This document shows positions 2,979 to 60,826 of a DNA stretch of 64,000 nucleotides, one piece after another (position 1 is the first letter of the stretch; each line of letters opens with the position of its first letter). The translations under genes and the position numbers were made by a program. The notes under the pieces are model-generated. The model saw only the letters and a program-made list of their open reading frames with translations, ran no database searches and was not told the origin of the DNA. Location: the IMG/VR virus record IMGVR_UViG_3300021431_000087, positions 60,195-124,194 of that record; one strand, written 5' to 3'. The DNA comes from a virus. Taxonomy: Duplodnaviria > Caudoviricetes.

Positions 2979-3536
2979 TTAGTTATCAAAAGCAAACACC
3001 ACACGACACTCATATTCTCCTGTCGATTCAATGCCCTCACAAAGGGAGACAAGACCAAGCCACTCCACATAGTCAGCATAAGGCTTCATCGTTTCGTCCT
3101 CCTGTTTGAAGCAATCATCAAAACACTGCCTTAACTCCTGTGTGGTAAGCCATGAATGAGAATGAAGGTCTGGGTCTGTTATCGTAAGGTGGTTTTCATC
3201 CACCCATTTTGAGCAACCTAATTCTACCCATTTTTCAGCCATTTCCTTTAAGCAGTAACGCTCTCCCCAGTCTGCTGCCGCTTTATCGTCTGTTACGTAC
3301 AAATAGAAACTGTTACGAGTAGCCCAATCTATTATGTCATTTGGAAGCCCACGTGGTTCAAACTGAACTTTATAATAATCACCATATGCTCTCACATTTG
3401 CCATTCGTGCAAACATTCCGTATATACGGCAACGAAACTCACCCAAGAAACCGACATTGTACCATTCGTTTCTTTCATTAGGATAAGATTTTTTCCTCCT
3501 TCTCCGTTCTACTCTTAAATGTATATCACAACCCAT
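2979..3536 (-). CDS. Conserved phage hypothetical protein (MGCDIH...HSHSW...RVVFAFDN family)
   Basis: MGCDIH, PRGLP, HSHSWLT and terminal FDN motifs. Confidence 0.75.
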   Translation of the reverse strand: MGCDIHLRVERRRRKKSYPNERNEWYNVGFLGEFRCRIYGMFARMANVRAYGDYYKVQFEPRGLPNDIIDWATRNSFYLYVTDDKAAADWGERYCLKEMAEKWVELGCSKWVDENHLTITDPDLHSHSWLTTQELRQCFDDCFKQEDETMKPYADYVEWLGLVSLCEGIESTGEYECRVVFAFDN

Positions 3537-3540
3537 AGCT

Positions 3541-3924
3541 CTATATGTTTATTATTTTTCCGTACTTTTTCAATTCTTCAACCATCCATCCGTAACCGCA
3601 AAAACCTTTTGATTGTTTTTCGGCTTTCTTGGCTTCGGATGGAGTGACAAACTTTACTTCAACACAAGCCGACCACCCGTCATCCCAATGGTAATAAAAG
3701 CGACCCTCTTTGAGATTGGGATAAATAGGTTTACCTCTCATGGTAGCCGTGCAAGTCATCGCATAAAAACGACCTTCACCACTCCATTTCCCGTTCCAAC
3801 TACCCACACCAGGCATGGTAAGGATAAAAAGAGCTTTTGTCTTCTTTTCTTCTTTCATATTATCATTTCTTTTCAAATTTCTCACACGGCTTTCCATATA
3901 ATGGTGCGCAATAGAACAAGCCAT
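3541..3924 (-). CDS. Hypothetical protein
   Basis: SWNGKWSG / WDDGW motifs; real start probably the downstream Met. Confidence 0.65.
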   Translation of the reverse strand: MACSIAHHYMESRVRNLKRNDNMKEEKKTKALFILTMPGVGSWNGKWSGEGRFYAMTCTATMRGKPIYPNLKEGRFYYHWDDGWSACVEVKFVTPSEAKKAEKQSKGFCGYGWMVEELKKYGKIINI

Positions 3925-30896: not shown

Positions 30897-31391
30897 TTAA
30901 GCATCTGCAAACACCTTCCCGTCATCAAGTGTTACTTGCAATTTCGTGTACTCACAATGGAATCTTTCTTTTAGTTTCCAAAAATAACGCCTACACGCCA
31001 ACTTGCAGGCTTGCAGGTCATGAAGAAGATAGTTGCCACATGTCTCTGGTGTTGTGGCGGGCACTTCCTCTTGCTCGCTTATCCACCGTAGACACTCCAT
31101 CGTCAGATAGCGCATTTTCTCTACATCATATCCTTTGCGCATGATAACGTACATTCCCGTCAAGCACCCCATCGGGCCTACATAAACCACGTCATCCTTT
31201 ACCACGCTATTCCTGAACCACGTAGCCATCAAGTGCTCGATGCTGTGCATGGCCGCAGGAGCGATGGCAGGCTCCTTGTTCGGCTCCGTGAAACGAAGGT
31301 CAAAGGTCGTAAAATCCTTATCCTCACGGGAAACATATATCCCCGGCTTCAACTTTGTGTGGTCAATCGTAAAACTTGCTATCGCTTCCAT
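30897..31391 (-). CDS. luxS: S-ribosylhomocysteine lyase (AI-2 synthase)
   Basis: SFTIDH, HSIEH metal motif, GPMGCLTG catalytic Cys, CGNY. Confidence 0.92.
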   Translation of the reverse strand: MEAIASFTIDHTKLKPGIYVSREDKDFTTFDLRFTEPNKEPAIAPAAMHSIEHLMATWFRNSVVKDDVVYVGPMGCLTGMYVIMRKGYDVEKMRYLTMECLRWISEQEEVPATTPETCGNYLLHDLQACKLACRRYFWKLKERFHCEYTKLQVTLDDGKVFADA

Positions 31392-31859: not shown

Positions 31860-31993
31860 ATTTTCTCTTTTTCGACAAAGATACGAATAAACATCGAGAA
31901 AACAACAAAAACTATGCTAAAGTATCTTATTGTAGGCATTTTTTGGCGATGTGTGCTAACAAAAGATAGTTAATACTAAACTGTGATTTTATA

Positions 31994-32025
31994 TTTGAAC
32001 GTTAAATAGTTTTATGTTATCTTTG
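31994..32025 (+). promoter_or_regulatory. Bacteroidota sigma-A promoter of the RAMP cassette
   Basis: TTTG 31994-31997, 20-nt spacer, TATCTTTG 32018-32025. Confidence 0.75.
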
Positions 32026-32080
32026 TGTCGTATTTAGTAAACGCCGCAAGGCATAGTAATAACAATTTATAACAGCGTAT

Positions 32081-32650
32081 ATGAAAACGTTAAAATTCCA
32101 AATTACGGGTACACGGCCTTTGATGCTGAATAACCCGCGAACTGTCAACCCATTTGACAAGTATTCAAAACTATTGAAGCCGCTGACGAGCAAGCGCACC
32201 AAGACCGAGGACGACCTCATGGAGATTTCCCGCCTCAAGTTCCTTGCCAGTTTGTACGTTGACGAAAAAGGTTATTTCCTCCCTCAGGAGTGCATCGAGC
32301 GTAGTATTATCGAAGCCGCCAAGGAGCGCAAACTCGGCAAGAAGTTTGAGCGCAGTTTCAACGTTATCGACCGTGCACCGCTTGACTTCAAGGACAACAA
32401 AAAGAAGCCTGAGCAACTTTTCGATATGGGTAATATGTACGTCGATGTCCGAGCCGTAGGCATCAAGAACGCTCGTATCACCACCACACGCGCCATCATT
32501 CCGAACTGGAGTGCCACCTTTGAGTGCTGGTTTGACGAAACCCAACTTGACGAGAAGGAGGTGCTTGACGTGTTGGAGATTGCTGGTCTTCGCTATGGTG
32601 TCGGCACGTACCGCCGCCTCTACGGACGATTCTCTGTGAAGAAGATTTAA
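32081..32650 (+). CDS. Cas7/RAMP-like RNA-binding protein (standalone phage RAMP)
   Basis: N-terminal beta strand + PLML, LP..CI..SI helix, thumb-like VGIKNARITTTR, C-terminal Gly-rich loop AGLRYGVGTYRRLYGRF; fold inferred by eye. Confidence 0.7.
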   Translation: MKTLKFQITGTRPLMLNNPRTVNPFDKYSKLLKPLTSKRTKTEDDLMEISRLKFLASLYVDEKGYFLPQECIERSIIEAAKERKLGKKFERSFNVIDRAPLDFKDNKKKPEQLFDMGNMYVDVRAVGIKNARITTTRAIIPNWSATFECWFDETQLDEKEVLDVLEIAGLRYGVGTYRRLYGRFSVKKI

Positions 32651-32664
32651 CGCTTCATATTTGC

Positions 32665-33248
32665 AGAGTAGTATAGCAATGCGTAGAAGAACTCCCGTGA
32701 CGGATTCCTTGCCGTGGTTCGACCCCACGGGCGGGAGCTATTCTCAGCTAAGTTTAGTAGAGCCTTGTGTAGACGAGACGAGTTTTGTTTAGCAAAGTTA
32801 TGCGCAGTTTAGTTAAGACGAACTCCCACAATGGTTGTATGTAAGGTTCGATTCCTTCAGTGGGAGCATTTAGTCCAGATTCGTAAAGCACAGTGGAGTG
32901 TAGTACAGTATGGCTCAGTTGAGAGAAGTTTAGTTCAGACCTGTACAGCAAAGACGAACTCCTATCATGGTGCAAGCATCGGTTCGATTCCGATGGTAGG
33001 AGCAAAAAGTTAAGTTCGGATTAGCAGAGTCCAGCGAAATATAGTTTAGCAGAGTAAAGAAGAACCCTCACTATGGTACAAGCCGTGGCTCGATTCCACG
33101 GGTGAGGGCAAAAAGTCCAGCAAAGACCAGTATAGCGAAGTGGTGTCTTGTATGGCTATGCAAAGCCATCCAAAGTTTAGCAAAGAACGGTTAAGTAAAG
33201 ACGAAGGCAGTAACGGTTCACGTTGGGGTTCGATTCCCCGAACTGCCC
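32665..33248 (+). ncRNA. Array of five 5-nt-periodic (WGH-NN) tracts, each followed by a tRNA-like element; putative guide-RNA array
   Basis: Tracts 32665-32689, 32746-32820, 32872-32956, 33008-33062, 33114-33203; tRNA-like elements 32692-32737, 32823-32866, 32959-33002, 33065-33108, 33206-33247. Confidence 0.85.
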
Positions 33249-33279
33249 AAAATGTTTAACATTTAAAACATAAGCGAAT

Positions 33280-33753
33280 ATGGAGAATAAAAAAGAATTG
33301 ACGGCAGAGGTGCTTAATCCTCTGATGGCTGAAATAGCCGAAAAGTTTGGTGACGGTGCGCTCATTCCTCACGAATGGCTGCGCAAGAAGTTCGACATCA
33401 AAGATCCTTCAATGGCTGACTGCGAAAGCGAAGAGGACTTTATCGCCAGACTGCGTGAGCAGCAGTTCCTCTATATGGGGTGCATCGACCAACTGCGATG
33501 GGCAATGCTTCAGAAAGAGCAAATGTACCTAAAGAACGAGTGGGGTGACGGATATTCCATCCTACTGCCAACAGAGCAGGTTTCTTTCGGCTACAACGAG
33601 TTTGTGAAGACCATCAAGAAAGCCACTAAAGAAGCGGATGCCATCATCAATAATGTGCGCCCCGTTCCCGACATCAACGCTGCGAAAGACAATGACATTC
33701 GTGCAAGGTTCGGGATGATGCGTGATATGCTGGCAAGCATAAAGAAAAGATAG
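33280..33753 (+). CDS. Accessory protein of the RAMP cassette, winged-helix-like
   Basis: YLKNEWGDGYSIL resembles a wHTH wing; helical C-terminus; same transcription unit as the array. Confidence 0.6.
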   Translation: MENKKELTAEVLNPLMAEIAEKFGDGALIPHEWLRKKFDIKDPSMADCESEEDFIARLREQQFLYMGCIDQLRWAMLQKEQMYLKNEWGDGYSILLPTEQVSFGYNEFVKTIKKATKEADAIINNVRPVPDINAAKDNDIRARFGMMRDMLASIKKR

Positions 33754-33786
33754 AATAGTTAATGTTAATTTGTACATATTTTGGCA

Positions 33787-33818
33787 AGCCTGTCCGTGAT
33801 GGATAGGCTCTGCTTTTT
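33787..33818 (+). terminator. Intrinsic terminator closing the RAMP cassette
   Basis: AGCCTGTCC-GTGAT-GGATAGGCT hairpin, then CTGCTTTTT; convergent with terL. Confidence 0.65.
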
Positions 33819-35238
33819 ATAGAAAATCTGACAATATTTGATCGTCAGACGCACCGCCTACAACCCCTCCTCTTTCAATAATCATCGTAAGGACATCTTC
33901 TGCGTCATCATGTGCATTTCTTCCTTCCTTTCGGTAACTTTTCACGGATGAAGCGAACTCTGGCCATCGACGTTCCCAATCCACAGGAAATACAATCATA
34001 TTGTTTACTTCACAAGCCCTTGTGAAGATTCTGACATTTTTGTTGTGGTGCTGCGTGAAAGTAATAAAAGTCGTTTTGTGGTTTTCGTACTCACGACTTA
34101 TACGTTCCACGTTTCTGGCAAAAGCCCTGCCTCCATTATTTGATTCAATGACACAATACCTTATCTCATATTTCGCTAAATCCTGCGCCAACATTTGTTC
34201 CGTTGCCTCTTGGCTTTTCTTTGTGTATATAACACTCGTCACGTAGTATCCATCTTTCATTGAAAGGTAGGTTATGCTACACAAATAATCCTCGCCAACA
34301 TCTGCGGTGTCGCAACAACAGCACATTGTCCCCAGCTTGACGGGAGGTAAAACTTCATAAGTACGAAATGCGTGCTCATAAAGCAAGCCTTCTAAAGGCA
34401 TAGGATTTTGTTGGTATTGTGTTTGAAAAACATACGAATTGGCAGCATTTATCTTATCAAGTTCCTCAAGTGTATGCTTGTATGGCCACAGTGCTTCACG
34501 CTCTCCGTTCTCGTTTATCTGTATAACTGGCAGTGATATCACCCGCCACTCGTCTGGTTCTATTTCCTGCAAATAGCCGCAGAGGTCATGCTCATGCAAA
34601 CGCTGCATGATAATGATAATGGGTGTGTTACGGGAATTGACGCGGTTTCTGATTGTTGTTTCAAAACGTCGGTTCACACGCTCACGGACAACATCGGAAA
34701 GGGCATCCTCCGGCTTGATAGGGTCATCGATAATGATCGCGCCACCAAAACGATACGGTTCACATTCCCTTTCGACAAGACCAGCACCGAAACCCGTAAT
34801 CTGACCGAGCGTAGATGTGGCGTACAAGCCACCTCCTTGGTCGGTTTCCCACTGAGATTTCATATTCTTTCCGTAGGTGATACGGGTAGGATAGAGCCGT
34901 TGATATTCTTCGTTTTGAACTATATTTTTTACGGCAATAGAGTTGTCTTGTGCAAGGTTGGCAGAATAAGAGAGGTGGATGAATTTGGCAGAAGGATTGA
35001 CGGCTAACCCCATAGCAATGAAGTTCTTTACTGCAAGTTCCGTTTTTCCATACCTCGGCGACAAATTAATAATAAGTTTATTACATTTTCCGTTAAGGAC
35101 ATCATCAAGGGCATCACAGATAAGCTTGTGGTGCCTGCCTATGATGAACTTCATGTCGTTGTTCTGCTTGAAGAAGTACCTTGTGAAGTTAAGGGAACTC
35201 TTCAGCGTCCAAGCCCTCAAAATGTCCGTGTCTGTCAT
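33817..35238 (-). CDS. terL: Terminase large subunit
   Basis: LIINLSPRYGKT Walker A, IIIDDP Walker B, IMQRLHEHDL, QYQQNP, IESNNGG, HDDAED. Confidence 0.93.
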   Translation of the reverse strand: MTDTDILRAWTLKSSLNFTRYFFKQNNDMKFIIGRHHKLICDALDDVLNGKCNKLIINLSPRYGKTELAVKNFIAMGLAVNPSAKFIHLSYSANLAQDNSIAVKNIVQNEEYQRLYPTRITYGKNMKSQWETDQGGGLYATSTLGQITGFGAGLVERECEPYRFGGAIIIDDPIKPEDALSDVVRERVNRRFETTIRNRVNSRNTPIIIIMQRLHEHDLCGYLQEIEPDEWRVISLPVIQINENGEREALWPYKHTLEELDKINAANSYVFQTQYQQNPMPLEGLLYEHAFRTYEVLPPVKLGTMCCCCDTADVGEDYLCSITYLSMKDGYYVTSVIYTKKSQEATEQMLAQDLAKYEIRYCVIESNNGGRAFARNVERISREYENHKTTFITFTQHHNKNVRIFTRACEVNNMIVFPVDWERRWPEFASSVKSYRKEGRNAHDDAEDVLTMIIERGGVVGGASDDQILSDFL

Positions 35239-36878: not shown

Positions 36879-39071
36879 TTATGTATTACACAAATTGTCA
36901 AGCTCCTCTTTCGTGAAGATTTCCATGATATTCGTCTGCGTGCCGTCTGGATTGATTCTAAACACATCTGCATAGTTGCCGCGCAGCTTAATGTAGCGGA
37001 AAATTATAACCTTCACGTAATGGGGTGAAAGCTCACAAAGTCGTGCGCTGCGACCGAGCTGCTCGGCGGCGATAAGGGTTGTTCCGCTTCCAGCGAATCC
37101 GTCATAGACAACGTCGCCCTTCTTGGAAGAGTTCTTCATAAGATAACCGAAAAGACCGACGGGTTTCATGGTCGGATGCAGTACCGATTTTGTCGGTCTG
37201 TCCCAATCTATCACGGTCGATTGCTTTCGGTCTGAATACCAGTTGTGTGCTGCACCGTCCTTCCAACCGTACAAGCAGTTGTGCGTAATTATTCCGTCGG
37301 CGATATAATGATGATGTTTCTCCACGGCAAGGGAATATACCATGCCGTCAAATGGCTTATAATCAACTTTTTCTATAACCTCCCATGTAAAATTTGGGTT
37401 GTCCTTCCCGTTGCCAGTAGGTATAGGCACCTGCATCAGTTCAGGGATAAGGTTACAAGCGTTGATTTTAGCCGTCACCCTTGTGCTGAAACGCTGTCCA
37501 ACAGTCAGTTTGGTTATTAGCGGGAAACGCTCCGAACGTCCAAAGTCATGCAGTAAACGATACGCATTTTCTCTTAACAATTCCAAGTCCAACGCATCAT
37601 AAATATCCGCTATCTGCTTTTCATTCCGTACATTTTCCGTGACAGCCATCCCTCTCTCAACTTCCCAATGGGTATAAGGTATACCATATTTAACCGCAAG
37701 AATCTGCTCACCTACTTGGGCATCCAGTCTGTTGTCATACAATTCAATAAGCCACGCTTCCTCCGCCTTCTCTTGTGATAGTCTGCTCTTTAAGCCGAAC
37801 TGACGTGCATCGTATGCTCTTGTATGACCTACGCGCCACCAATTTCCACGACGCATAAGATAAGTGCAATATGCTTTCTTGCAATTGCCATTGAAACGTA
37901 TGCTGAAATCATGGTTGTCTGTCGTTTTTGTGGTATGTTCTCCTACAGAAATGGAATACAACAGCCCATCGTAGTGTCTGCTTGCCGTTTCTATAGCATA
38001 ACCCCCGTTTCTATATCCAACTACCTGACCACTAAGCGAATCATAAGAAATAACCCTGTCTCTATTTGTTAGGGTCTCTATTGGCTTGACACCTTCTATC
38101 GTCTGTACAAGCGTACCTGCTGGCTGACATGGCTCATGTTTCCAGTGATAGTCCTGCCTTCCGAGGACAAGGCTGTTCTTGTTCCAGATAAGGTTCTGCC
38201 GCAAGTCCATGTCACCGATATTGATAAGAGCCTTCCTAAAGTAGAAAGAGTAGGAGTCGGAATGGAAAATGTAGTATGTGCCGCCAGCCTTAAGGTTCGC
38301 CTTTGCCTCGGTAAAGGCATCGGTCAGGAAAAGCTCAAAATTATCGTTGCTCATCTTGTCGTTAAGGACAACAAGACCGTCAGCGCGCTGCTTTCCACTT
38401 TCCTCATACCCATAGGCTACATTATAAGGTGGATCGGTAAGCCAAAGGTCTGCCTGCTCCCCATTGGGGAATAGCCTGCTTACGCATTCCTGCTTCGTAG
38501 AGTCACCGCATAGCAGCATATGCCTTCCGAGCTTCCAAAGGTCGCCCTCTTGAACAATGTCGTCTTCAAGCACGTCATCCTGCTCAAAGTCATCATCCTC
38601 CTCTACGGTGCTTTCCTCCTGTGGTGTCGGGGCTTCCTCGGTATTATCCTCCACAGCCTCTCCGATTTCGGGAATATCAATAGCCGCGAGTTCTATCTCG
38701 TCCATTGACCATTCGTCAATGAGCAACTGGAAGTCCCACTCACCGAAGCCGCTGTTGTCCTTCAGGGCGATGCGGTGAATCTTGTCCATAGGGAAACCGT
38801 GGTGCAGTATCTTACATGGTACCTCCTTGTAGCCAAGTTCCTTCATGGCACGGTAGCGCATGTTACCGCCAACCACCACATAACCGAGGGAAGGATCGTC
38901 GGTGTCATAGACTATCAACTCGCGCAGTTCGAGCATCTCCGGGTCATCCTTGATGCTCTGCACAAGTTTCTTGTACTTCTCGTCACGTATAAAGCGGGGG
39001 TTTTTCTGTAGTCCCTTCACCTGCCCTATATTTGGGAACACCTGTCCTATCGGCAGCAATTTTGTCTCCAT
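36879..39071 (-). CDS. ParB-N + N6/N4 DNA methyltransferase containing an intein
   Basis: NPRFI..ParB-N, CGDST, TDPPYN, HPTMKPV, DGFAGSGTT. Confidence 0.9.
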   Translation of the reverse strand: METKLLPIGQVFPNIGQVKGLQKNPRFIRDEKYKKLVQSIKDDPEMLELRELIVYDTDDPSLGYVVVGGNMRYRAMKELGYKEVPCKILHHGFPMDKIHRIALKDNSGFGEWDFQLLIDEWSMDEIELAAIDIPEIGEAVEDNTEEAPTPQEESTVEEDDDFEQDDVLEDDIVQEGDLWKLGRHMLLCGDSTKQECVSRLFPNGEQADLWLTDPPYNVAYGYEESGKQRADGLVVLNDKMSNDNFELFLTDAFTEAKANLKAGGTYYIFHSDSYSFYFRKALINIGDMDLRQNLIWNKNSLVLGRQDYHWKHEPCQPAGTLVQTIEGVKPIETLTNRDRVISYDSLSGQVVGYRNGGYAIETASRHYDGLLYSISVGEHTTKTTDNHDFSIRFNGNCKKAYCTYLMRRGNWWRVGHTRAYDARQFGLKSRLSQEKAEEAWLIELYDNRLDAQVGEQILAVKYGIPYTHWEVERGMAVTENVRNEKQIADIYDALDLELLRENAYRLLHDFGRSERFPLITKLTVGQRFSTRVTAKINACNLIPELMQVPIPTGNGKDNPNFTWEVIEKVDYKPFDGMVYSLAVEKHHHYIADGIITHNCLYGWKDGAAHNWYSDRKQSTVIDWDRPTKSVLHPTMKPVGLFGYLMKNSSKKGDVVYDGFAGSGTTLIAAEQLGRSARLCELSPHYVKVIIFRYIKLRGNYADVFRINPDGTQTNIMEIFTKEELDNLCNT
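37278..38129 (-). mobile_element. Intein (284 aa) in the methyltransferase
   Basis: KHEP|CQPAGTLV...TTDNH...YSLAVEKHHHYIADGIITHN|CLYGW. Confidence 0.9.
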
Positions 39072-47342: not shown

Positions 47343-47386
47343 AATCGTAACAGATTAACATTCAAAACTCATATATTAAATTTCTG

Positions 47387-47460
47387 CGGATGTGGCTGGA
47401 TTCAAACCAGCGGCCTATTGGTTAACAGCCAATTGCTCTGACCTTCTGAGCTACACAACC
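47387..47460 (-). tRNA. tRNA-Asn(GTT)
   Basis: GGTTGTG acceptor, ATTGG-CTGTTAA-CCAAT anticodon arm; T-loop TTTGAAT variant, one acceptor mismatch. Confidence 0.85.
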
Positions 47461-47467
47461 ATTTTCG

Positions 47468-47539
47468 TTGCGGAAGATGGGTTCGCACCATCGACCTCCT
47501 GGTTATGAGCCAGGCGAGCTACTACTGCTCCATTCCGCG
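47468..47539 (-). tRNA. tRNA-Met(CAT), initiator-like
   Basis: CGCGGAA/TTCCGCA with C1xA72 mismatch; CCTGG-CTCATAA-CCAGG. Confidence 0.88.
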
Positions 47540-47631
47540 ATATGAAAGGCATCCTCCGCTATCCCATGTGCCGCTGCCCTGTGTGCGAAGTACGGCGGAT
47601 CAATCCGTGCGGCTTCCTTTATGCCTTTTTG

Positions 47632-47716
47632 CGGAGAGTGAAGGATTCGAACCTCCGAGCCATTTCTGACTGACACGTTAGCAACATGTTGCTTTCGACC
47701 TCTCAGCCAACTCTCC
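47632..47716 (-). tRNA. tRNA-Ser(GCT)
   Basis: GGAGAGT/ACTCTCC, ACATG-TTGCTAA-CGTGT, long variable arm, GGTTCGAATCC. Confidence 0.9.
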
Positions 47717-60075: not shown

Positions 60076-60826
60076 TTAAAATAGCGACAGCTGCCTTGTC
60101 TCTTCCCATATCCTCTGCTCGGCAATCTTGCAATAATTGTTGGATATTTCAGAACCGATATATTTCCGTTTCAGCTTTGTTGCCATCAAGGCAGTCGTCC
60201 CGCTACCCATAAACGGGTCATAGACCAAATCACCCTCCTTGCTGCAACATTTAATGATATTGCCGACAAGGAGCTTGGGAAAAGGTTCGGGATGCTTCGT
60301 ATTCGTCTCGAAGTTGATGTTCCACACGTTTTGTCTGAAGGCGGACTGTGACTTATCGAAGAAGACGTTCTTCGGGTCTTTCACAATCCAGTAGATATAT
60401 TCGGTTATAGGCTGGAAATAATGTGGGTCATTGGCGCAGCTGCTTCCTCTATTCCATATTATCTGCTGATGAATACTGAAGTCGTACACCCATTTGGGCG
60501 GGATAATAACGCCGTCCACAAGAATATCCTTGTGGTTATAGAATATACTGCCCGTTGGCTTTAGGACTCGGATGCACTCGCTTAGAATGTTTCTCTGCCA
60601 TGCCTCATAAGCCTCTTGCGGCATATTATCGGAATAGGTGTCGTAAGCTATCTGGTCGCCCACGCATGGCCGACCAGAACCCGCTTGTGCCCTTGTCTGT
60701 TGCGTATGCGTTCTTGTTGTACGGCGGCGACGTTACAATAAGGTCAATGGAATTGCTTTCAAGACGCTGTAGCGTATTCATGCAATCCTCGTTAAAGATA
60801 ATATTTGTATCCATAGTGTTTACCAT
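60076..60826 (-). pseudogene. N4/N6 DNA methyltransferase split by a 1-nt frameshift
   Basis: TSPPY half (60626-60826) and HPEPFP/DPFMGSGTT half (60076-60663) join if one base near 60654 is removed. Confidence 0.75.

Follow-up and report, generated by a model that had tools for sequence, protein, structure and literature searches.

Miniature tRNA-like elements without an anticodon arm punctuate the guide array of a phage VIPR locus

Introduction

VIPR is a newly described, CRISPR-related gene-silencing system, first reported in 2026, in which Vipr protomers polymerise on a guide RNA (vrRNA) of GGY/NN pentamers; the NN positions read double-stranded DNA, with one base skipped per unit, and a conserved, structured tail stands 3' of each repeat tract (10.64898/2026.04.26.720920; 10.64898/2026.04.26.720927). 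How the guide arrays of this system are cut into units is a question raised by a locus in a 64,000-nt stretch of Caudoviricetes DNA (positions 60,195 to 124,194 of IMG/VR record IMGVR_UViG_3300021431_000087; "the window" hereafter, numbered from its first letter). Judged by its genes and repeats, the locus at 32081-33753 is a VIPR system, and its array consists of five guide tracts, each followed by a small structured element. What are these elements, and could they be the means by which the array is divided into unit guides?

The five elements are tRNA top-half mimics, that is, minihelices of acceptor stem and T arm, set in a phage VIPR array. VIPR itself is known, but the texts of the VIPR preprints describe no variant in which the tail or separator resembles a tRNA. 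The word tRNA does not occur in those texts, figures apart, and their authors may nevertheless have seen such elements. The most economical explanation of the arrangement, to which we give a probability of about 0.6 on sequence evidence, is that the tRNA end-maturation enzymes of the host, RNase P and RNase Z, would cut the array at these mimics.

The tRNA-like elements

All five elements lie on the + strand and are minihelices of 42-46 nt without an anticodon arm. An acceptor-like stem of 6-8 bp is followed by a linker of 9-14 nt that begins A-Y-G-G and by a T stem of 4-6 bp, whose G-C closing pair encloses a TTCGAYY loop; the 3' acceptor strand follows 0-2 nt downstream. The 9-14 nt that separate the acceptor strand from the T stem leave no space for an anticodon arm in any of the five. 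A preliminary description, drawn from the letters of the window alone, had proposed five miniature tRNA-like elements in the array, with a TTCGATT-type T-loop, a linker carrying YGG and no anticodon arm; the positions, the strand and the acceptor stems that it quoted are correct for all five, and each of these features is present in every element. Among themselves the elements are 64-79% alike, with stems that covary, and the subtype represented by element 5 is common to the last element of another VIPR locus (L001 of the survey below) and to arrays from Actinomycetota.

Detection does not depend on the window itself. The covariance model search that the preliminary description had suggested was run with a model (R2) whose 50 source elements all came from other phages or genomes and none from the window; on both strands of the 64 kb it returned exactly the five elements, at E values from 3.2e-12 to 1.8e-8, and its next-best match was the T arm of a real tRNA (E 0.74). 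ARAGORN and the Rfam tRNA model left all five elements uncalled, their calls in the window being three real tRNAs at 47386-47716, and against the cloverleaf with D arm and anticodon arm that defines a genuine tRNA (Rfam RF00005) the elements are not tRNAs. A permissive Rfam scan gave, for element 5, a sub-threshold match to mascRNA (19.9 bits, E 0.31), so far below the family threshold of 42.5 bits that it signifies likeness, not membership. Because neither tRNA finders nor Rfam call it, the module would be missed by annotation pipelines.

Conservation of the fold was assessed by counting covariation on model-fitted alignments, with shuffled sequences and slid partners as controls. Across 38 distinct sequences, 92.2% of pair cells are paired, as against 59% in shuffled sequences and 46-51% when partners are slid; across 47 distinct sequences, window excluded, the corresponding figures are 90.2%, 52.5% and 43-52%. 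Compensatory changes on both sides are found in 12 of 13 pairs in the 38-sequence set and again in the 47-sequence set, which bears out the earlier claim that structure is kept while sequence varies. G-U pairs at several pair positions are consistent with an RNA transcribed from the + strand. When single sequences are folded thermodynamically, the acceptor plus T-arm shape is obtained for four of the five; the z-scores are modest, from -0.9 to -2.4, and the three guide tracts that were folded have no more structure than shuffles.

The residues that are kept are those of a tRNA. The acceptor stem (6-8 bp) directly abuts a 5-bp T stem, forming a coaxial stack of about 12 bp in 12 or 13 layers, and in 27 of the 38 distinct elements the stack reaches 13 layers, as in tRNA-Sec, through pairing of the discriminator with the base that precedes the 7-bp stem. 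The T-loop, GTTCGAnnC, is nearly invariant and carries the consensus T54 T55 C56 R57 A58, while the closing pair G53-C61 is present in 37 of 38 and in 47 of 47 distinct copies. A-Y-G-G stands right behind the acceptor strand in most of the 38 copies; this linker GG sits much nearer the stem than in tRNA, and its D-loop-like docking at the elbow is putative. Since the stem sequences covary freely, what is conserved is no more than the shape and the loop residues specific to tRNA.

Duplication of the 3' half of a tRNA is common among integrating elements, and on that precedent the elements could be decayed tRNA genes or att-site remnants devoid of function. Such an origin is scarcely credible for a module that retains both acceptor strands, covarying over 47 distinct copies, that is regularly spaced and conserved across phyla, and whose close relatives show no loss of pairing.

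The VIPR locus and its guide tracts

The protein encoded upstream of the array belongs to a family whose profile matches the "SUSP1 Vipr protein" of PDB 36pp_D over residues 1-187 (E 2.3e-33). Its AlphaFold2 model (pLDDT 91.4) has Csm3/Cas7 as best Foldseek matches, and it is 37% identical to Felixounavirus proteins. The product of vap, on the other side of the array, resembles gp68 of Escherichia phage dune, which adjoins the vipr of that phage (BLASTP, 23% identity over 138 aa, E 5e-9). At the nucleotide level, blastn of 32000-33800 against phage records gave no match.

The tracts have the periodicity of vrRNA guides (Table 1). Between elements, AG occurs in a single 5-nt phase in 12/17, 14/18, 9/12 and 12/19 pentamers, and is near zero in the other phases. 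The tracts are C-poor and all end AGA[C/A]-GAA immediately before an element, with the spacing from the last AG through 5 nt to the element fixed in five of five units; all five tracts are thus followed by a covarying element where VIPR arrays have the structured tail. The fixed trinucleotide is AGY here, WGT or RGT in close relatives and GGY/NN in its canonical form; non-canonical repeat classes of VIPR have already been noted (10.64898/2026.10.21.760802), and AGY/NN is such a variant.

It appears from the sequence that vipr, the five guide tracts and vap form one transcription unit. Two putative promoter motifs of the form TAnnTTTG, the -7 consensus of Bacteroides promoters, lie upstream of vipr, and a regular-expression scan found no such motif inside the array. 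With promoter motifs only upstream of vipr and the terminator-like hairpin only after vap, the guides would have to be cut from a vipr-array-vap transcript. A sigma-70 promoter scan gave no more matches than shuffles, the sigma-70 consensus not being applicable to Bacteroidota.

The means of cutting found in other guide arrays were sought nearby. No ribozyme or other Rfam family was detected in 32500-33400 at E up to 10, nor a hammerhead core, and the eight neighbouring open reading frames scanned include no cas gene, Cas6 among them, besides the Vipr RAMP itself.

Three other readings of the array were set aside. A CRISPR array with Cas6-type repeats was rejected, given elements only 64-79% alike, stems that covary and no cas processing gene among the eight neighbouring frames scanned; a TRAP-like protein-binding RNA, (G/U)AG with a 2-nt spacer, was dropped for the tracts after the homology of Vipr had been found; and the linker GGT was rejected as a final Vipr-binding repeat, being out of phase and 17 nt from the last AG.

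Table 1. Positions of the tRNA-like elements, guide tracts, genes and putative transcription signals of the VIPR locus in the window
Feature	Position	Strand	Description	Evidence
Element 1	32692..32737	+	acceptor CTCCCGT/GCGGGAG, T arm CGTGG-TTCGACC-CCACG	42.7 bits, E 2.7e-9, leave-window-out model
Element 2	32823..32866	+	acceptor CTCCCAC/GTGGGAG	E 1.4e-10, leave-window-out model
Element 3	32959..33002	+	8-bp acceptor CTCCTATC/GGTAGGAG, T arm ATCGG-TTCGATT-CCGAT	E 3.2e-12, leave-window-out model
Element 4	33065..33108	+	acceptor CCCTCAC/GTGAGGG	E 9.2e-10, leave-window-out model
Element 5	33206..33247	+	second subtype: G start, acceptor GGCAGT/ACTGCC, linker AACGGTTC	E 1.8e-8, leave-window-out model
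Tract 1	32651..32691	+	short vrRNA guide, ~5 AG-phased pentamers, end AGAA-GAA	
Tract 2	32738..32822	+	15 pentamers in one phase, end AAGAC-GAA	
Tract 3	32867..32958	+	17 pentamers, end AAGAC-GAA	
Tract 4	33003..33064	+	11 pentamers, end AAGAA-GAA	
Tract 5	33109..33205	+	18 pentamers, end AAGAC-GAA	
Putative promoter motifs	31990..32025	+	two Bacteroidota-type -7 motifs TAnnTTTG (at 31990 and 32018), upstream of vipr	regular-expression scan
vipr	32081..32650	+	189-aa RAMP/Cas7-like Vipr protein	profile, structure, phrog_4652
vap	33280..33753	+	157-aa accessory gene, vap1 homologue (SUSP1 type)	BLASTP, phrog_5926
Terminator-like hairpin	33787..33819	+	intrinsic terminator-like hairpin and T run closing the vipr-array-vap unit	

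The locus can be compared with type II VIPR, known from Escherichia phage SUSP1 and a Pseudomonas fulva prophage and composed of Vipr, vap1 and vrRNAs. Common to both are the homologous Vipr, vap1 and a phage-borne location, pentamer repeats with three fixed and two variable positions, and a structured module of ~40 nt directly 3' of the tract. They differ in the repeat, AGY/NN here and GGY/NN there; in the array, which here lies between vipr and vap and is packed without spacer hairpins, whereas the units of the SUSP1-like phage dune are ~60-nt segments apart; and in the 3' module, here a mimic of the tRNA acceptor and T arm, in dune a hairpin-type pseudoknot. The preprint texts name pseudoknot tails, staggered arrays, hammerhead-interspersed arrays and single vrRNAs as vrRNA architectures. 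In the hammerhead-interspersed arrays of VIPR types I and V (figs. S19-S20 of the preprints) a structured RNA between the guides likewise serves to cut the array with no Cas6-like protein, but those RNAs cleave themselves, whereas here no ribozyme was detected and dependence on host enzymes is predicted.

Distribution of the module

The survey covered the DNA downstream of Vipr homologues in 80 IMG/VR loci. Periodic tracts are present in essentially all loci whose Vipr is at least 44% identical, and in 503 kb of related loci the tRNA-like model gives 91 matches (38 distinct sequences), all of them on the vipr strand and inside arrays. When four whole genomes were scanned, every match below E 1e-4 fell in a VIPR array, with two other weak matches at E ~0.009, so that real tRNA genes there are essentially unmatched by the model. 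Close relatives come from Bacteroides, Duncaniella, Porphyromonadaceae and Prevotella assemblies, and the phage host is therefore probably a member of the Bacteroidales.

On the Vipr tree a well-supported, Bacteroidota-associated clade comprises 44 rows, and the element occurs in the basal L073 and in a subclade of 25 rows. Nested in the same clade is a subclade of 18 rows, largely from rumen samples, which has a linear motif, GTTATATCC, between its tracts, with no tRNA-like fold. In L054, L057, L061 and L068 of this sister clade (~3100-3560 in each) a short linear AAAGTTATATCCAAAC-like motif separates the AGY/NN tracts. Looser periodic tracts, separated by a different conserved, GGATTGGTTTATTGGAATGGA-like motif, were seen in a locus with a Vipr 42% identical (L076:3140-3700).

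Beyond the Bacteroidota, two Actinomycetota genomes, Piscicoccus intestinalis NBRC 104926 and a Haloechinothrix metagenome-assembled genome, carry the module at the end or flank of canonical GGC/NN tracts, beside a Vipr that is only 32-35% identical. Their elements have a G-start acceptor and an ACGGTC or ACGGTT linker (L100:2095-2442 for Piscicoccus, L112:3500-3700 for Haloechinothrix). The Piscicoccus array lies upstream of vipr and runs element-tract-element-tract-element, an element coming first. A comparable order is found in the clade of L045, vipr-element-tract-element-vap, where the first element directly follows the vipr stop with no preceding tract; an element with no upstream guide cannot be a guide tail, and can set the 5' end of the next guide. 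Two members of this clade have a second periodic tract array immediately behind vap (L045:3760-3875, L050:3737-3827).

Of the 150 Bacteroidales genomes searched, five have solo copies that share the acceptor, the A-Y-G-G linker and the T arm (L124:1501-1548(-), L125:1501-1549(-), L129, L126, L127 and L122); they lie in short gaps between open reading frames. In L124 and L125, the two that are annotated, the element lies just upstream of a Mu-like transposase gene (phrog_310) and after a small open reading frame, which in L124 has a weak helix-turn-helix match. Neither Vipr nor a periodic tract was found within ~1.5 kb of the solo copies, and such copies without Vipr imply that the module does not depend on it.

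This distribution bears on the possibility that the element is a specific handle for Vipr or Vap, in the manner of the repeat handle of a CRISPR RNA (crRNA), with its tRNA likeness incidental. CRISPR systems use the constant part of their guides as a handle for protein, and the authors of the VIPR satellite preprint treat the SUSP1 tail as making the vrRNA competent for Vipr complex formation. A Vipr-specific handle is nonetheless improbable: the fold is kept beside a Vipr of 32-35% identity and with different repeat motifs, a closer clade does without it, solo copies lie far from any Vipr, and the stems vary freely around a fixed shape and tRNA-specific loop residues. The occurrence of the module in distant VIPR arrays, its position on both sides of a guide in some arrays and the solo Mu-like copies favour a signal for RNase P and RNase Z over such a handle.

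Maturation of the array

The fold with its covariation, its constant position in VIPR arrays and its occurrence outside them are observed; from these we infer which enzymes would act, where they would cut and what would become of the element, as follows. Each guide tract is followed, at a fixed distance, by an acceptor/T-arm mimic that constitutes the constant structured module of the vrRNA array. The T-loop and linker GG of the mimic could form a tRNA elbow, and the host tRNA end-maturation enzymes would recognise the stacked helix with this elbow; what RNase P, RNase Z and the CCA-adding enzyme read in a tRNA is the stack of acceptor and T stems together with the elbow, rather than the anticodon arm (PMC4919913). 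RNase Z would cut just 3' of the element, giving the following guide, and the vap mRNA, a free 5' end, and RNase P might cut at the 5' edge of the element. If both cuts are made, unit guides ending ...GAA would result, with neither Cas6 nor a ribozyme. If only the 3' cut is made, the guide would keep the element, perhaps with a CCA tail, as a tRNA-like cap at its 3' end, in the role of the SUSP1 pseudoknot tail. As a third possibility, the outcome of cutting may vary between units.

The enzymes are available in most carriers examined: RNase P RNA (type A) was found in five of the five carrier genomes tested, and full-length RNase Z in all four Bacteroidales carrier genomes. None of the three phage tRNAs encodes CCA, so that their 3' ends need an endonuclease cut and CCA addition, and a trailer, G-CAAAAAG, is common to the phage tRNA-Ser and elements 3 and 4. 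The layout has parallels as well. Engineered polycistronic tRNA-gRNA arrays place tRNA units beside guide RNAs for release by RNase P and RNase Z; such tRNA-flanked guides are man-made, with whole tRNAs or natural t-elements, whereas the module considered here is a natural, armless minihelix of 42-46 nt whose cleavage is predicted. In Haloferax, tRNA-like elements placed on either side of a crRNA suffice for it to mature without Cas6 (PMC6546412), and the L045 clade and the Piscicoccus array share the layout of that t-element-crRNA-t-element "icrRNA". A tRNA-like fold within a longer transcript also acts as an end-forming signal in mascRNA/MALAT1, MEN-beta and mitochondrial tRNA punctuation (PMC4919913, for part of these cases), although mascRNA, unlike the module, is eukaryotic and keeps a small anticodon-like stem.

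The preliminary description had proposed that the phage uses host tRNA maturation in place of a Cas6. What stands of this proposal is that tRNA mimics punctuate a real guide array in which no Cas6, ribozyme or internal promoter or terminator was found, that elements occur on both sides of a guide, and that copies exist without Vipr; the cutting itself is what we infer. Its alternative, a protective 3' cap, is equally alive on the present analysis.

That alternative can be put in a form that dispenses with tRNA enzymes altogether: the element would be mainly a retained 3' cap or tail, protecting the vrRNA from 3' exonucleases and marking the end (or start) of the Vipr filament, and general RNases (RNase E/G/Y, or exonuclease trimming) would cut the units. 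In SUSP1 the mature guide retains its pseudoknot tail, which forms a cap at the 3' end (10.64898/2026.04.26.720920; 10.64898/2026.04.26.720927), as seen by cryo-electron microscopy, and the element has the same position and a similar length (~40 nt). The spacing from last repeat to element, fixed in all five units, is as a cap would have it, and so is the pattern of turnover. Between the near-identical phages L001 and L002 the elements are identical, and the tracts show substitutions and 5-nt indels. Assembled metatranscriptome contigs span vipr and reach element 1, and one from a bovine metatranscriptome (run X3) differs by a single letter from 32546-32739 of the window, which hold the final part of vipr, tract 1 and element 1; beyond element 1 this contig runs on into a different 5-nt-periodic tract, which looks like guide replacement beside a conserved module. 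In both comparisons guides turn over and the module stays, as expected of a constant part. A cap could, however, be a plain hairpin, which leaves the conserved T-loop, G53-C61 and the linker GG unexplained, and neither the elements with no upstream guide (L045 clade, L100) nor the solo copies of Mu-like prophages can be guide tails. A cap served by general RNases is accordingly to be regarded as unlikely, and as deserving to be kept in view.

Several observations weigh against cutting by RNase P and RNase Z. One Actinomycetota carrier has no clear RNase Z, its matches being weak (best 47.5 bits). The sister clade that has GTTATATCC in place of the module shows that tRNA mimicry is not required for array function. 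The AGA[C/A]-GAA junction fits a single guide-plus-tail unit as well as an RNase P leader, and the 13-layer stack of 27 of 38 copies may bear on how RNase P acts. In SUSP1 the tail is retained; cutting by RNase P would detach it from the guide, so that complete excision may not take place. Finally, the RNA data are assembled contigs: where these stop, at 32643, 32696 and 32739, is not to be taken for an RNA end, and contigs that reach element 1 cannot show cuts.

Many phages counter tRNA-directed defences with tRNAs or tRNA-like RNAs of their own, and this phage has three real tRNAs. The elements might by analogy be tRNA mimics for another purpose, as decoys for tRNA-targeting defence or as substrates for aminoacylation or CCA-tagging, their placement in the array being secondary. 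Lacking an anticodon arm, they cannot decoy anticodon nucleases; their acceptor sequences vary freely, with no identity element seen (no G3:U70, for example), and their strict placement, one per tract, points to a role tied to the guides. Another purpose of this kind is very improbable.

Should host tRNA enzymes indeed cut the array, this would be a third natural route of guide maturation, beside Cas6-type proteins and self-cleaving ribozymes, and a natural counterpart of the engineered tRNA-guide arrays used for multiplex CRISPR. Small (~44 nt), indifferent to the sequence of its stems and met with in distant hosts and in loci without VIPR, the module may be a general phage RNA-processing signal, and it provides a simple marker for VIPR arrays with non-canonical repeats. 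A wider proposal is offered tentatively, and is itself doubtful: that the 42-46-nt armless mimic is a portable punctuation cassette of bacterial mobile elements, driven by host enzymes, which would cut polycistronic RNAs at defined points in the VIPR arrays of Bacteroidota and Actinomycetota and between early genes of Mu-like prophages, in VIPR replacing Cas6 and ribozymes and, once CCA-tailed, doubling as a 3' cap. Such a cassette would be the bacterial-virus counterpart of the mitochondrial tRNA punctuation model.

Guide targets

Targets for tracts 2-5 were sought in the phage's own 124-kb genome and related loci, allowing 0, 1 or 2 skipped bases, and the best scores equalled those of shuffled guides; under the 1-nt rule they were 19/28, 22/32, 15/20 and 24/34 for tracts 2-5, respectively. 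With a 3-base skip only the guides' own DNA matched. Target matches in terL and amidoligase that had been put forward earlier (24/34 bases; 9/16 dinucleotides) are therefore at chance level. The exact 1-nt-skip pattern of the ten 3'-most dinucleotides of tracts 3 and 2 gave no match in IMG/VR, and natural targets may be imperfect or outside that collection. Since natural targets are expected in competing elements, the null result is no argument against guide function.

Other features of the window

The acceptor stem of the phage tRNA-Met (47467-47539, -) begins with a C1-A72 mismatch, the hallmark of a bacterial initiator tRNA. At 36879-39071 (-) an open reading frame of 730 aa combines ParB-N with a DNA methyltransferase and has an internal, sub-threshold match to intein splicing (PF14890, E 5e-7, 30 bits against a cut-off of 35.8). 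A homologue of LuxS (S-ribosylhomocysteinase; PF02664, E 4e-45) is encoded at 30897-31391 (-), adjoining a metallophosphoesterase, and may be an auxiliary gene related to quorum sensing.

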